This document shows positions 6,204 through 61,612 of a stretch of 64,000 nucleotides of DNA, piece after piece; position 1 is the stretch's first letter; each line of letters opens with the position of its first letter. Location of the stretch: sequence record MH791411.1; one strand, written 5' to 3'. A model generated the notes under the pieces. That model did no database searches and was not told the origin of the DNA. It saw nothing but the letters and a program-made list of their open reading frames with translations. The translations under genes were made by a program, and so were the position numbers. Source of the stretch: Escherichia phage Ecwhy_1.

Positions 6204-6632
6204 TTAGTTAATAATAAAGGTAACTTCAGGATTCATTTCTGAAACTGCATTTCTCTTACTTCTATTCCATAGTACTCTATTGTTATATAATGAAGAATCA
6301 CAAATTATAAGTAAGCAATTCCTTAATCTACTTACAGTACTTTGATTACTTAAATCAGTTTCTGTAACAAAAAATACATTATCAGGAACTTCTACAGGAA
6401 TTGATTTATCAAAGAAGAAAACTACAATAGGTCTGTTTGTATGAACTAAATTAATAAAGTCTAAAATACTGTTATAAAATTCAGTTCCTTTGTTTAAACT
6501 TAATGGATCTTTGATTCTCTTCAAATAGGTCTGAACCAAATTATGATCGCTTTTGATTTGATACTCAAAATATTCTTTGAATAACATTTGTGTTAATTCA
6601 GATGTATTGGATATTTTCGTTGTGTTACTCAT
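6204..6632 (-). CDS. hypothetical protein
   Basis: Track ORF, 142 aa. Confidence 0.5.
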   Translation of the reverse strand: MSNTTKISNTSELTQMLFKEYFEYQIKSDHNLVQTYLKRIKDPLSLNKGTEFYNSILDFINLVHTNRPIVVFFFDKSIPVEVPDNVFFVTETDLSNQSTVSRLRNCLLIICDSSLYNNRVLWNRSKRNAVSEMNPEVTFIIN

Positions 6633-6718
6633 TCACTTCGTTCTCTCGTAACTCAAGAAGTCACTACGTTTACTTCGTAAACTAGTTCCTTCTGAAAATG
6701 ATAATGTACTTTAAAAGC

Positions 6719-7260
6719 TTGACGGGATTTGTTGAGGACTATTTCATCCCCCCGCAGGGGAATGAAGGTAATAAAAAAGAGACAATTAAGTCTCTCTTGA
6801 CGATGATGGCATCGGATATTATCGAATTGCGAATTTCTCAAATTTTGGACGGATCTTTCCTGTACCAAAATTTAGAGAGCGAAAGCGGGTTGCTCGGTTT
6901 CTCTCTATCGCAGTCATATGCAACGGTCGCTGGTCTTTTCATCAACAGCACTCAGTACTAAACTCTATTCGATCAAAGTAGTACCTGTTCTCAAATTTTG
7001 GACGCAACTTTCTTGTAAAATCGCGTCCACAATCCTTGAACTCCCTTAGCAAATTCGTAAGGTGCGAACCTTATACATCTATCTAGGAACTCTCTGTGTG
7101 CTTATTGGAGTTCTTTATACAGCCGTGTCGCCGTGATTCGTGGTCTTATCTCGTGTTTGTTTGATTGCCAGTACTCTAACAGGTTTCTTTTGCTGTTCGC
7201 TACAACGGTAAAGCTCATCTATCCTTTACATTTTCAAGAGAAGTAGGTTCTCATTATCCA
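6719..7260 (+). ncRNA. candidate structured non-coding element, copy A (paralogous to 57533..58016)
   Basis: Largest intergenic gap; long near-identical blocks shared with copy B; GNRA-capped hairpins in plus-strand sense (GC-GAAA-GC, TAAGGT-GCGA-ACCTTA); no conserved ORF; strand assignment tentative. Confidence 0.4.
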
Positions 7261-7322
7261 TTTTTCAATGTCCGTTGTCATTTTACAATATACATTATAT
7301 CACTAGGATGTATTATGTCCCG

Positions 7323-7736
7323 TTACATGTATACCTTTTTCAAATCCTTGGAACAACGGTCAAAAATTGTGTTGATGAATTCGACATCCTCTTTGATATT
7401 GGAGTCTATAGCATCATTCTCGTTTCTTGTTGTGTTCCTGTATTTGTGTTCAGGGTGATTGTATACCACCTTGACTACATTATTTAGGTCTACAAAAAAT
7501 GACGATTTTTGCGTATAGGAAGCCTGAAGCTTGATGAGTTTACCATCGTTTTGTAGATTAGTCTTGTGAATTAGTTCTTCAATACCATCTAAATGGCTAT
7601 AGCTATCCTGTTCTTTGACGAATGTAACAGTTACCAGTACTGACTTCTCATCTCCAAAGTCAGAGATATTTTTAACAGCACTGATGATTTCTAAGTTTGA
7701 AAAATCTAATTCTTTTAGCATTACAAATATTTCCAC
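7323..7736 (-). CDS. hypothetical protein
   Basis: Track ORF, 137 aa. Confidence 0.5.
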   Translation of the reverse strand: MEIFVMLKELDFSNLEIISAVKNISDFGDEKSVLVTVTFVKEQDSYSHLDGIEELIHKTNLQNDGKLIKLQASYTQKSSFFVDLNNVVKVVYNHPEHKYRNTTRNENDAIDSNIKEDVEFINTIFDRCSKDLKKVYM

Positions 7737-8131: not shown

Positions 8132-8743
8132 TTAATTGTGATTATTCAATTTCTTTTGTTCTTTTTTTAGAGCTTTCATATGTCGTCCAAAATCACGAAC
8201 ATGCCATATATGGTCGGTTTCCCATAGTTCTGTACGTAAACGGCGTTCTTCCAATTCTTCTGGCGTAGGAATTTTAGATTTCTTCTTATCTTTATTGAAA
8301 AAATCATTCATATGTTCTTCCAGTAGATTTCTACCCTTAACTTTTTCCAGGAATTCATCTACTGATTCAGTTTTATTAGAACGAAGACTGTTACAACGTG
8401 AACACATGGTGTTGTAATTTGACTCTAAATCAGGTCCACCCTTAGATGCTAGTTGGTTATGATCTACTGTCATCAGTACTTCATATAGACCACAAACTGC
8501 ATAGACATTTAAGTGAGGTTTACCATATACCGGATCAGTGCTATGTGAACGCTCAATGCGAACTTCAGTGGCTTCAATACCACACGCAACGCATTTACGA
8601 TTCTTAACGAATGTAAGTACTTTTTGTGGGAAGTATCGGAAAGTAACACCGTTATATGTATAGCGTTTCATCTGTGTACTTCTTTGATTTAACTCATCAA
8701 GAAGTGATAGTTTGGCAACATAGTAGACCTGATATTTTGACAT
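8132..8743 (-). CDS. HNH endonuclease, possible homing endonuclease
   Basis: CVACG zinc-knuckle followed by TVDHNQLASKGGPDLESNYNTMCSRCNSLRSNK, matching the HNH pattern DH..GG....N...C..CN..K. Confidence 0.6.
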   Translation of the reverse strand: MSKYQVYYVAKLSLLDELNQRSTQMKRYTYNGVTFRYFPQKVLTFVKNRKCVACGIEATEVRIERSHSTDPVYGKPHLNVYAVCGLYEVLMTVDHNQLASKGGPDLESNYNTMCSRCNSLRSNKTESVDEFLEKVKGRNLLEEHMNDFFNKDKKKSKIPTPEELEERRLRTELWETDHIWHVRDFGRHMKALKKEQKKLNNHN

Positions 8744-57415: not shown

Positions 57416-57532
57416 TATTCCTATGGAAACATCAATGACTGTACATGGCGTTGACTACATCAACACCAGTCGAATTATACACGCTTCGCATGTCTAATTC
57501 GACGAAAGTACTATGATTTGTTTTAATTAATA

Positions 57533-58016
57533 TTGACGGGGTTTGCTTGAGCATATTTCATCCCCCCCGCAGGGGAAAGAACAAAAAAAGTTTGACGCTG
57601 GTGGCCTTCACATAGTTCATATCACGAATTCTCTTACGAGGCGAAAGCGGGTTGCTCTGTTTCTCTCTATCGCGGTTCTTGTAGCAACGGTCGTCGGTCT
57701 TAAACATCCCGACACATAATACAAATACCATATGACCAGTACTTGTATTTGATTTCACGAATTTTGGACGCAACTATATTGTATAAATTACGACCGCAAA
57801 TTTCTCATGAAATCTCCCTTAGATAATTGGTAAGGTGCGATCCTTATATGTCTATCGAGGAACTCTCTTTATCCTATTGGAGTTCTTTATACAGCCGCAT
57901 TGCCGTGAGTGGTTCAAACTATGCCATCATCTAACGGGTTTCATTTGCTGTTCGTACTGAAAGGACTACTCATCTACCCTCTACTTTTCGAGTGGATTAG
58001 GCTTTAATCATTTCCA
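57533..58016 (+). ncRNA. candidate structured non-coding element, copy B (paralogous to 6719..7260)
   Basis: Second-largest intergenic gap; shares the same conserved blocks as copy A; strand assignment tentative. Confidence 0.4.
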
Positions 58017-58034
58017 TATGGAACCTTTCAGGAT

Positions 58035-58067
58035 TAAAAAAAGGCGACAACATATTCTGCTGTCACC
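58035..58067 (-). terminator. putative intrinsic terminator
   Basis: On minus strand stem GGTGACA/TGTCGCC (one G-U) followed by T7; ends the upstream gene just before element copy B. Confidence 0.45.
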
Positions 58068-58097
58068 TTACATTATATCATAAACTTATGGTATGTC

Positions 58098-58946
58098 TCA
58101 GTTGTATTCTGTTTTTTCAGTGAAATTAGTTAAGATATCTGCACTTAAGCTTCTCATAACCTCAATCTTACTTGGCATGAACCTGTGCTTGTTTTTTACA
58201 TACAACTCATCATCTTCAATGAAAGATGTGAACATGAATACCATATCTTCACGTGGAATTGAGAGAATATTACAGTTTTCATTTTCAGCAACAGGGGAAT
58301 CATTGTAGTACTTAGAGAATGCAGTACTTTGACGACCGATTATGATAGAATTTCGGATTAGAAAATTACTACAGTACTGAAAATCTTTGTAGTACTTGTC
58401 AAGGATATATGGCATTATCGCTTCTTTCACTTCTTCATATCCATTGGTACTATCAATTTCAGTACAATAATCTTCTCGGTCTTTTTTCCCTCGATGATTA
58501 TCAAACTCGTACTCAAAGAATAAATTTTTATTTAATGAATCATTTGAACCAACTGATCCACTATAGTATGATTTTCTATCATTCATTCGATCATCCGGGC
58601 ATGATGCATACATAGAAATGTCATGTGTTGACGTACCGATATAAATTTTCTTAGTAATGTGATTGTACGCGATGTAATCATAATCTTGTACTCCAGTTAG
58701 CATTAACTGGAACATCAATTCATCAGGAACATCAATTAACGGGTACTCAAACTTCGAATATCTACTACGACAGAAATTCTTTTCAAATGCTCGATATGCG
58801 ATGAAATCTTTTAGGTTTGTAATAGATTCATGCTCATGTGTACTACTGGTGCGTACATTGACATTAGTAGACGAGCAATACCCTTCAGATTCTTCTGCGT
58901 AGTCATAATAACCCTTACTGTAGTCAACGATTAGATAAAGTTTCAT
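58098..58946 (-). CDS. hypothetical protein
   Basis: Track ORF, 282 aa. Confidence 0.5.
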   Translation of the reverse strand: MKLYLIVDYSKGYYDYAEESEGYCSSTNVNVRTSSTHEHESITNLKDFIAYRAFEKNFCRSRYSKFEYPLIDVPDELMFQLMLTGVQDYDYIAYNHITKKIYIGTSTHDISMYASCPDDRMNDRKSYYSGSVGSNDSLNKNLFFEYEFDNHRGKKDREDYCTEIDSTNGYEEVKEAIMPYILDKYYKDFQYCSNFLIRNSIIIGRQSTAFSKYYNDSPVAENENCNILSIPREDMVFMFTSFIEDDELYVKNKHRFMPSKIEVMRSLSADILTNFTEKTEYN

Positions 58947-61138: not shown

Positions 61139-61612
61139 TTACTCCAAATCGGGATCTTTAACTGTTAGGCTTTCAATATCACTTGCGTAAAGAACTACAT
61201 TAGTTTGTGTCTCTGATACTTTAAAATCATGATAACTATCTTTCACTTTAAAATTATCCAAAATAAACCCTTTACTACAACACATCATGATTTTATCATC
61301 TTTGATGGTGTATGTATTCTTTTTCTTACGTACTTCAGATTGTGGGGTAATATTATCATTGTTACGAATAACACAATCAATGTACTCGTCATTTGTACTC
61401 ATAGGCATACCCATGATAAACGAATTACTAGTACTGATTGTTAGTATGAAAACATTAGTATTTGGATTGTGAAAGAAGTCGTGCATAGTTTTACTGCATA
61501 AAAACAAGCACTGAATTATGTCCTTTACATTGAACATTATATCATGAACTTTGAATGCGTCCAACTCTAAAATGTCATCTATCTTTCCATTCTCAACAGT
61601 TTTAATCTCCAT
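61139..61612 (-). CDS. hypothetical protein
   Basis: Track ORF, 157 aa. Confidence 0.5.
   Translation of the reverse strand: MEIKTVENGKIDDILELDAFKVHDIMFNVKDIIQCLFLCSKTMHDFFHNPNTNVFILTISTSNSFIMGMPMSTNDEYIDCVIRNNDNITPQSEVRKKKNTYTIKDDKIMMCCSKGFILDNFKVKDSYHDFKVSETQTNVVLYASDIESLTVKDPDLE

Follow-up and report, generated by a model that had tools for sequence, protein, structure and literature searches.

A candidate class of pseudoknotted ~0.5-kb RNA encoded at several syntenic sites in Rak2-like jumbo phages

Within a 64,000-nucleotide stretch of Escherichia phage Ecwhy_1 (sequence record MH791411.1; the whole stretch is referred to as the window), an Asteriusvirus-type (121Q/PBECO4) jumbo coliphage, two gaps free of open reading frames (ORFs) raise the question of what they encode. 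Measured between minus-strand ORFs of at least 80 amino acids (aa), the gaps at 6633-7322 (690 nt) and 57416-58097 (682 nt) are the two largest, and they contain copies A (6719-7303) and B (57533-58080) of the same element, as a preliminary description of this DNA had proposed; every shared block listed there was recovered by alignment. Sequence comparison provides a well-supported case that this element represents a new ~0.5-kb pseudoknotted RNA class of Rak2-like jumbo phages. The term two-copy element used earlier holds for the window, but the genome carries four to five copies.

Conservation and base-paired architecture

Copies A and B align with 78% column identity across ~540-585 nt, and have a G+C content of 40-41% (window, 34.7%). 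A profile hidden Markov model (nhmmer) and a covariance model each located exactly two copies within the window; the covariance model of the 3' domain, R1, scored 113.9 bits for copy B and 109.4 bits for copy A, with a runner-up of 16.3 bits (E=0.086). The proteins flanking copy A are unrelated to those flanking copy B and, therefore, the repeat is the non-coding element itself, a duplicated gene block with paralogous neighbours being ruled out as its source. Pfam searches with the seven flanking ORFs returned nothing informative. Conservation on the right-hand side runs further than first described, to 7303 in copy A and 58080 in copy B, and includes the promoter presented below.

The element occurs in four to five copies per genome, at syntenic sites, among Rak2-like jumbo phages. 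Sequence matches to copies A and B were found in 60-71 phage records from at least nine host genera, at 3-5 places per record, the matched groups being Asteriusvirus, Mimasvirus (GAP32, CBB) and Eneladusvirus (Serratia BF, Yersinia fHe-Yen9-04, Erwinia pEa_SNUABM), together with Salmonella 7t3, Xanthomonas XaC1 and Klebsiella phages. Copy A shows 100% identity to several Escherichia jumbo phages and 97% to 121Q (Asteriusvirus), whose 348.5-kb genome carries four copies at ~90.3, 192.8, 247.4 and 326.6 kb, all oriented along the main coding strand. Metagenomes contributed 76 further loci, and scans of IMG/VR and metagenomes with conserved patterns added numerous others, every one of them on a contig that is jumbo-sized or fragmentary. 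Orthologous copies retain their neighbours between genera, the B-type copy always lying ahead of a small ORF, a Dam methylase and a cytidylyltransferase; the paralogues are therefore old residents of syntenic sites and did not insert recently. Paralogue C is located in 121Q and CBB inside a small inverted gene block, between the endonuclease VII gene and a baseplate-hub gene, with both neighbours on the opposite strand, and in 121Q it possesses its own promoter and terminator.

Clustering of the homologues at 95% identity yielded 51 full-length non-redundant sequences, which were aligned with MAFFT (alignment A3; an earlier alignment, A2, comprised 30 sequences). Helices were identified by a strand-neutral scan for stacked covarying column pairs together with inspection of the alignment, and were then tested on A3 against column shuffles and against a displacement of the 3' partner by 1-3 columns. 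The resulting architecture consists of 79 base pairs in 15 helices, with three pseudoknots. Across the 51 sequences, 93.7% of the cells were paired (75.7% after shuffling and 40-43% after sliding), 58 pairs had changed on both sides (41.6 and 18-27), 720 cells were compensated (202 and 65-103), and the covariation score reached 0.503 (0.179 and 0.07-0.10). In pseudoknot PK1 the loop of hairpin H2 pairs with an upstream strand through 7 bp, all seven of which covary, and 99% of its cells are paired. PK1, H10, PK2b and H6 are 99-100% paired with 2-3 pair types each, and H10 and PK3 are 100% paired with compensatory changes. Moreover, H4 reads CUGAAUG/CAUUCAG in most homologues and ACAACGG/CCGUUGU in copy A, a fully compensated replacement. 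Helix 15, P1, displays one-sided changes only, with tandem U·G<->C-G variation. The structured RNA proposed at the outset thus came through the covariation test overwhelmingly, and several of its stems are real: the GTTGC/GCAAC helix, the AGGAACTC/GAGTTCTT stem and the TAAGGT...ACCTTA stem covary and correspond to PK2b, H3 and Hj, and the C-run/G-run hairpin is P1. The proposed GC-GAAA-GC hairpin with its GNRA loop has to be replaced, as its bases form the covarying pseudoknot stem PK2a instead, in which G(A/G)AAG in the plus sense pairs with CUYYC.

Motifs that are invariant or nearly so in the 51 sequences stand between the helices, namely UAAGGGAG, CACGGCAAUGCGGC, CGACCGUUG, AACCCGCUU, ACCCGUUAG and GAUGAG, and each copy contains 2-4 YCGUCA boxes. 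The peripheral hairpins vary as modules; these include the H8 module, which is missing from some paralogues, a long or short inner arm, and the terminator hairpins. Large functional RNAs typically show such a pattern, which would not be expected of a gene for a protein, intact or decayed, or of a duplex DNA site; a conserved structured RNA is strongly supported by the alignments.

RNAalifold on the full-length MAFFT alignment gave poor, strand-ambiguous structures and was superseded by the covariation scan and manual helices, and a long-range pairing of the invariant CUAAGGG with CCCGUUAG was dropped, its few natural variants being uncompensated. The inner arm of the central domain (A3 columns ~186-222; 7130-7185 in copy A and 57905-57935 in copy B) takes a long or short form that tracks neither paralogue type nor genus, a distribution that suggests module exchange (gene conversion) between paralogues. 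Copy A contains the extra AGAGAC-AATTAA-GTCTCT hairpin reported earlier (6775-6798), and a second insertion (6841-6875), located in hairpin H7, that is an internal duplicate of the '...CGUCCAAAAUUUGAG' module, '...UACA(A/G)GAAAG(U/A)U(G/C)CGUCCAAAAUUUGAGAA', resembling 6990-7030. This H7 insertion is common to other A-type copies and to a few other paralogues (e.g. L040, L232).

The homologue alignment contains no conserved reading frame, start codon or peptide after the Shine-Dalgarno-like UAAGGGAG, and a leader peptide at this position was rejected accordingly. The earlier statement that the ORFs inside the copies are not conserved extends in this way to the homologues. GenBank records carry one to five small 'hypothetical proteins' (and one 'structural protein') over the element, apparently because an RNA gene was annotated as coding. 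Copy A itself contains a plus-strand ORF of 87 aa (6698-6961). No model of Rfam 15 (4227 models) matched at its gathering score anywhere in the window, in keeping with the novelty first claimed, and at E<=10 the region 6600-7400 yielded only four chance-level matches to unrelated small RNAs. ARAGORN detected no transfer RNA (tRNA) or transfer-messenger RNA genes in the window, and no 12-mer complementarity to the rest of the window beyond chance was found that would suggest a guide RNA. Furthermore, no description of the element was found in the literature, including the genome papers for CBB, phAPEC6 and PA5oct; a large IMG/VR screen reported only motifs of 29-151 nt (PMC10690425).

Two known kinds of element were considered and discarded. 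A group I intron is incompatible with the intergenic location, the complete and unrelated flanking ORFs, the lack of an RF00028 match, the differing helix order, a PK2 that is a simple H-type knot without intervening domains, and a paralogue C antisense to both neighbours; a possible likeness between UCUAUCUAGGAAC and the T4 td intron carries no weight as evidence here. A mobile element (a miniature inverted-repeat transposable element or one derived from an insertion sequence) was likewise rejected: terminal repeats, target duplications and variable insertion sites are lacking, and the copies are syntenic across genera. The element ends in a promoter and a CGUCA box, not in inverted repeats. 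The match to a decayed gene or known mobile element that the preliminary description had named as contrary evidence was not found; the copies are syntenic and lack a conserved frame.

Transcribed strand and order of the transcription unit

At the right-hand boundary of every copy the minus strand bears an extended -10 sequence, TGnTATAAT, (near-)invariant over the 51 sequences, with GNGACA (TGAAACG/TGGAACA in other genera) located ~16 nt upstream, so that the promoter is directed into the element; CBB and the other 121Q copies show the same arrangement. The -10 sequence belongs to a class, tGgGACA-N13-TGATATAAT, with minus-strand examples at 61544, 59783, 51988, 45074, 42851, 37417, 33891, 28505, 7302 and 58080. 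The minus (coding) strand of the window has 17 occurrences of TGNTATAAT (~4 expected per strand) and both strands together have 18 (8.1 +/- 2.9 expected); most of them precede genes, usually with tGgGACA 13 nt upstream. A promoter class of 'TGAAACG + classic -10' has been described for CBB and GAP32 (PMC5259590), and the window class, the general promoter class of the phage, corresponds to it. In B-type copies, a canonical minus-sense terminator begins 3 nt after the -10 sequence, an orthologue of which is annotated in GAP32; in copy B it would stop upstream read-through, with new transcripts starting inside its 5' arm. This overlapping terminator/promoter insulator (58034-58099, minus) is kept in B-type copies of other genera. 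A- and C-type copies contain a minus-sense hairpin with a U-run inside the element, called as a terminator in 121Q paralogue C; overall, about half of the copies have a terminator hairpin.

Wobble pairs in the A3 helices distinguish the strands. Alongside 3484 Watson-Crick cells, the minus sense contains 225 G·U cells and the plus sense 107, two positions alone accounting for 69 of the latter, and the paired fraction of 93.7% in the minus sense falls to 90.7% in the plus sense. Read as minus, the centre of PK2a is G·U in 35 and A-U in 16 sequences, the variable pair of H6 is G-C in 35 and G·U in 13, and the inner pair of H2 is U·G in 37 and C-G in 13; P1 has tandem U·G and C-G, and Hj presents an A-U, G·U, G-C series in the 30 sequences of A2. 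Since these variable internal wobbles are G·U in the minus sense, in the plus sense covarying helices would be interrupted midway by A·C mismatches. Additionally, copy B folds with a z-score of -1.90 in the minus sense and -0.37 in the plus sense, and when the local energies of the defined arms are added up, 27 of 30 sequences come out in favour of the minus sense. Because of the promoter, the terminators, the wobble pairs and the folding of copy B, the RNA is very probably made in the minus sense, co-directional with the genes.

The unit reads in the RNA sense from the terminator of the upstream unit, present in some copies, through the promoter to a folded core of ~450 nt. The core is followed by CGUCA box 2, a U-run (with the terminator hairpin in about half of the copies), P1, and CAAAUCUCGUCA(G/A), which contains CGUCA box 1. 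Beyond it lie an A/T-rich stretch resembling the late-promoter motif of the phage (UAUAAAU/UAAUAAAU), a small GUAC-loop-GUAC hairpin bearing AACG(A/U)AGUG and, in several paralogues, an early-type AAAAUUCUUUGACA promoter before the next gene. Downstream genes often have their own promoters between element and gene, and those genes are therefore independent of the promoter of the element. With a promoter and a terminator of its own in 121Q, paralogue C would be a stand-alone RNA gene, so that this holds for one copy at the least. The positions of these features in copies A and B are given in Table 1.

Table 1. Mapped and predicted features of copies A and B (positions in the window)
Feature	Position	Strand	Content or basis
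Copy A promoter	7294..7321	-	-35 GGGACA 7321-7316, 16-nt spacer, extended -10 TGATATAAT 7302-7294
Copy A putative transcription start	near 7287	-	predicted from promoter
Copy A RNA body, ~570 nt, read right to left	6719..7287	-	nhmmer, alignments A2/A3, structure counts
Copy A 5' domain	7202..7278	-	H4 (7202-7208/7272-7278, ACAACGG/CCGTTGT) encloses hairpins 7219-7246 and 7259-7270; helices 1-3 of covariation set
Copy A central domain	7058..7196	-	helices 4-7 of covariation set
Copy A H10	7119-7123/7192-7196	-	central domain
Copy A pseudoknot PK3	7075-7077/7126-7128	-	central domain
Copy A H3	7085-7092/7108-7115	-	central domain
Copy A Hj	7058-7063/7068-7073	-	central domain
Copy A variable inner arm	7130-7185	-	central domain
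Copy A invariant single-stranded UAAGGGAG, Shine-Dalgarno-like	7041..7048	-	
Copy A optional hairpin module H8 (GGACGC/GCGTCC), CGUCC motif	7000..7028	-	duplicate 6841-6875 in H7
Copy A 3' domain	6821..6987	-	helices 8-14; covariance model R1 109.4 bits
Copy A PK1	6967-6973/6821-6827	-	7 bp, all covarying
Copy A H6	6828-6832/6908-6912	-	3' domain
Copy A H7	6835-6838/6876-6879	-	3' domain
Copy A H-type pseudoknot, PK2a	6881-6885/6901-6905	-	
Copy A H-type pseudoknot, PK2b	6889-6893/6920-6924	-	
Copy A H9	6929-6932/6946-6949	-	3' domain
Copy A H2	6953-6964/6977-6987	-	3' domain
Copy A CGUCA box 2	6798-6802	-	within 6770..6802
Copy A terminator-like hairpin and U-run	6770..6802	-	AAGAGAGAC-UUAAUU-GUCUCUUUU-UUAUU, -10.8 kcal/mol
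Copy A hairpin P1	6743-6766	-	G6 run paired to C/U run
Copy A CAAAUCCCGUCAA with CGUCA box 1 (6720-6724)	within 6719..6766	-	after P1
Copy A 3' flank, may belong to element	6634..6718	-	extends to start codon of ORF 6204..6632; A/T-rich late-promoter-like stretch, GUUUAC-GAA-GUAAAC hairpin, AACG(U/A)AGUG at 6662-6670 and 6634-6642
Copy B promoter	58072..58099	-	GAGACA, 16-nt spacer, TGATATAAT
Copy B intrinsic terminator, 12 bp and U7	58034..58069 (hairpin 58069-58041)	-	-17.6 kcal/mol
Copy B RNA body, ~530 nt	57533..58065	-	HMM, covariance model 113.9 bits
Copy B 3' domain	57612-57750	-	
Copy B UAAGGGAG	57814-57821	-	
Copy B CGUCA boxes	57593-57597, 57534-57538	-	
Copy B U7 run	57583-57589	-	
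Copy B P1	57557-57581	-	

The flanks of the copies showed some further regularities. On the minus strand of the window, AACG(A/T)AGTG has just two occurrences, both immediately 3' of copy A, and one of them abuts the ATG at 6632. At related loci, AACG(A/T)AGTG lies in GUAC-loop-GUAC hairpins followed by AAAATTCTTTGACA early-type promoters (e.g. L157 5004-5032, TTGACA-17-TAGAAT). Genes for HNH (homing-type) endonucleases are found within ~1.5 kb of copies A and D (window 8132-8743, minus; 121Q genes 513 and 170), which may be coincidence or may reflect the use of conserved RNA genes as homing targets. In 121Q, copy D lies directly downstream of an RNA polymerase sigma factor gene (sigma genes 89267-90232 and 321985-322824) and copy C ~3.8 kb downstream of the late sigma factor gene, so that two of the four copies adjoin or neighbour phage sigma-factor genes.

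Stand-alone RNA, cis-acting leader or other element

The explanation that we favour, tentatively and as something close to an even call, is that of a stand-alone non-coding RNA with its own promoter and a folded scaffold, partner-binding or catalytic role. Each copy would be a ~0.5-kb non-coding RNA gene on the minus strand, the strand of the protein genes, and transcription would start from the sigma-70-type extended -10 promoter of the element itself. The RNA is predicted to fold into three domains joined by long-range helices and by PK1, PK2 (H-type) and PK3, displaying the unpaired invariant motifs and the YCGUCA boxes between the helices. These invariant loops and junctions may bind one common partner (a phage or host protein, RNA polymerase or the ribosome), or the RNA may be catalytic. 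We infer that the RNA itself is the product, acting as a stand-alone ribonucleoprotein (RNP) or ribozyme-like RNA and being neither an antisense regulator nor a protein gene, and that the four to five paralogues would supply or position it around the 350-kb genome. This explanation is preferred because copy C stands alone and downstream genes are often independent of the promoter of the element. Several observations weigh against it, or against the minus sense that it presupposes. A terminator is found in only about half of the copies and the conserved P1 lies past it; transcripts of B- and D-type copies would continue into the gene downstream; and the retention of four to five diverged, syntenic paralogues, co-oriented in the case of the four 121Q copies, would fit a cis-acting, position-dependent role at least as well. 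With regard to the strand, the invariant pair of H3 is A·C in the minus sense and G·U in the plus sense, the outer pair of H7 varies U-A<->C·A in the minus sense, the arms Hj, H3 and Hin fold better locally in the plus sense, and the whole-molecule minimum free energy (MFE) of 30 sequences shows no consistent strand bias.

A role in cis would be that of a leader, whose nascent RNA would fold just past the phage promoter and act on its own polymerase or transcript, conferring processive antitermination or insulation comparable to that of HK022 put, lambda nut and rrn leaders and carrying long co-directional arrays through the many intrinsic terminators of the 350-kb genome. We regard such a leader as unlikely. 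In its favour, every copy begins directly at a promoter, A-, B- and D-type copies lie ahead of a co-oriented operon, the overlapping terminator insulates B-type copies from upstream transcription, the folded core is succeeded by a terminator or U-run, no terminator separates B- and D-type copies from the gene downstream, and the ancient, syntenic paralogues include four on the main coding strand of 121Q (at 90, 193, 247 and 327 kb). It is disfavoured by paralogue C, whose inverted block is followed by more than 1 kb of opposite-strand genes, by the early- or late-type promoters that many downstream genes have between element and gene, and by a size 5-8 times larger, and a complexity far greater, than those of any known antitermination RNA; moreover, no boxA/boxB-like or put-like motif was established. 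The same dispersed positions would also suit replication origins, at which a promoter-driven structured pre-primer RNA would form a persistent R-loop and prime the leading strand, like ColE1 RNA II or the T4 oriF/oriG middle-promoter transcripts, from four to five co-oriented sites. Copy number, spacing and uniform orientation in 121Q fit such origins, as do the T4-like replication and recombination genes of these phages and the invariant G6 run and U-run near the 3' end. The G6 run may resemble the G-runs that form R-loops. The promoter class has, in addition, been reported as enriched upstream of CBB DNA-synthesis genes (PMC5259590). Origins are nevertheless distinctly improbable, given a flat GC skew without an inflection at either copy, a sequence after the promoter that lacks the character of an AT-rich unwinding element and in B-type copies forms a GC-rich terminator hairpin, and three covarying pseudoknots that would be superfluous in the T4 model.

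The preliminary description had placed the RNA on the plus strand, as a gene class antisense to the surrounding genes. This assignment is quite unlikely, the conserved promoter and terminators being minus-sense with no plus-sense terminator found, although it can account for the strand anomalies listed above: the H3 pair is an invariant plus-sense G·U, a U-A<->U·G pair closes H7, GNRA-type loops accompany the better local folding of Hj, H3 and Hin, and mean whole-molecule MFE does not differ between strands. The H3 pair was the G·U originally cited for the plus sense; being invariant, it carries no evolutionary signal, and it remains a caveat. A weak promoter-like motif, TTGACG-N16/17-T(A/T)NCAT, stands at the left end, but its -10 sequence falls within hairpin P1 and is missing the key A of position 2. 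The plus sense has half as many wobble pairs, only two wobble positions exceed 5/51 sequences, and A·C would fall mid-helix in PK2a (35/51), H6 (13/51), H2, H8 and P1. The folding of both strands suggested earlier gave a divided answer, as copy B folds better in the minus sense and neither RNAalifold nor whole-molecule MFE separated the strands. Finally, an element acting as DNA (a protein-binding array, recombination site or cruciform), a decayed gene or a non-autonomous mobile element would be consistent with the multiple copies, the 2-4 TTG(G)ACG repeats in each, the HNH endonuclease genes near two copies and the modules exchanged between paralogues. It is hardly credible, since extensive compensatory change in long-range helices and pseudoknots is unexpected for double-stranded DNA sites or decayed genes; strand-asymmetric wobble pairs, the lack of any conserved frame, and syntenic copies without the marks of insertion also argue against it.

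Comparison with known systems

Some features of the element recall short or promoter-defined phage and plasmid RNAs. Like the put, nut and rrn antiterminators, it lies directly downstream of a promoter, occurs in more than one copy per phage genome, has terminators after it and is co-directional with long operons; unlike these RNAs, which measure 30-70 nt and have one or two stem-loops, it comprises ~500 nt with three pseudoknots, and one paralogue has no co-oriented downstream genes. It resembles ColE1 RNA II in being a promoter-defined RNA of a few hundred nucleotides, folding being important in RNA II, and T4 oriF and oriG in occupying several dispersed sites per genome with a non-late promoter, yet it has no unwinding element or skew signal. 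The T4 origins do not form a conserved sequence family. In the distantly Rak2-related jumbo phage PA5oct, RNA sequencing defined four ORF-free transcribed regions of 236-619 nt, ncRNA001-004, most of them on the main coding strand (PMC7318152), which are likewise long, ORF-free and of unknown function. No nhmmer match was found at the ncRNA001/002 locus (L045), and the best matches of the 3'-domain model R1 at the four PA5oct loci (L045, L235, L236) had E>=1.7.

The closest parallels in kind are the large RNAs GOLLD, ROOL, OLE, raiA and HEARO, which are also several hundred nucleotides long, with multiple pseudoknots, covarying long-range helices, invariant junction and loop motifs and optional peripheral hairpins, and whose function was unknown at discovery; GOLLD and ROOL share the phage association as well. 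Large intricately folded RNAs of unknown job are rare and have repeatedly opened up new biology, as with ribozymes, riboswitches and RNA cages. Large 'ornate' bacterial and prophage non-coding RNAs have been visualised by cryo-electron microscopy (10.1101/2024.12.08.627333). The features that mark such RNAs (>400 nt, non-coding, covarying helices and pseudoknots) are all present here, in ~490-600 nt with 15 helices and three pseudoknots, and the covariation support is as strong as in accepted RNA families. The likeness to GOLLD, ROOL, OLE and raiA is of kind only, no homology to them having been found with Rfam. The element differs from these RNAs and HEARO in residing in virulent enterobacterial jumbo phages as four to five diverged syntenic paralogues per genome, and in not lying beside tRNA genes.

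It is possible, if doubtful, that the element represents a new class of large catalytic or RNP-forming phage RNA, or else an RNA-based cis system organising transcription or replication from four to five fixed, co-oriented stations. Such fixed, co-oriented copies may help to run a viral genome of very large size, and questions of transcription and replication control in jumbo phages would become directly testable; the annotation of at least 60-71 deposited genomes would be corrected. The host phages grow on laboratory E. coli, Salmonella, Klebsiella and Erwinia, and several are candidates for phage therapy. If the proposal is true, the element would have a standing comparable to that of GOLLD and ROOL, but in culturable E. 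coli phages amenable to genetics.

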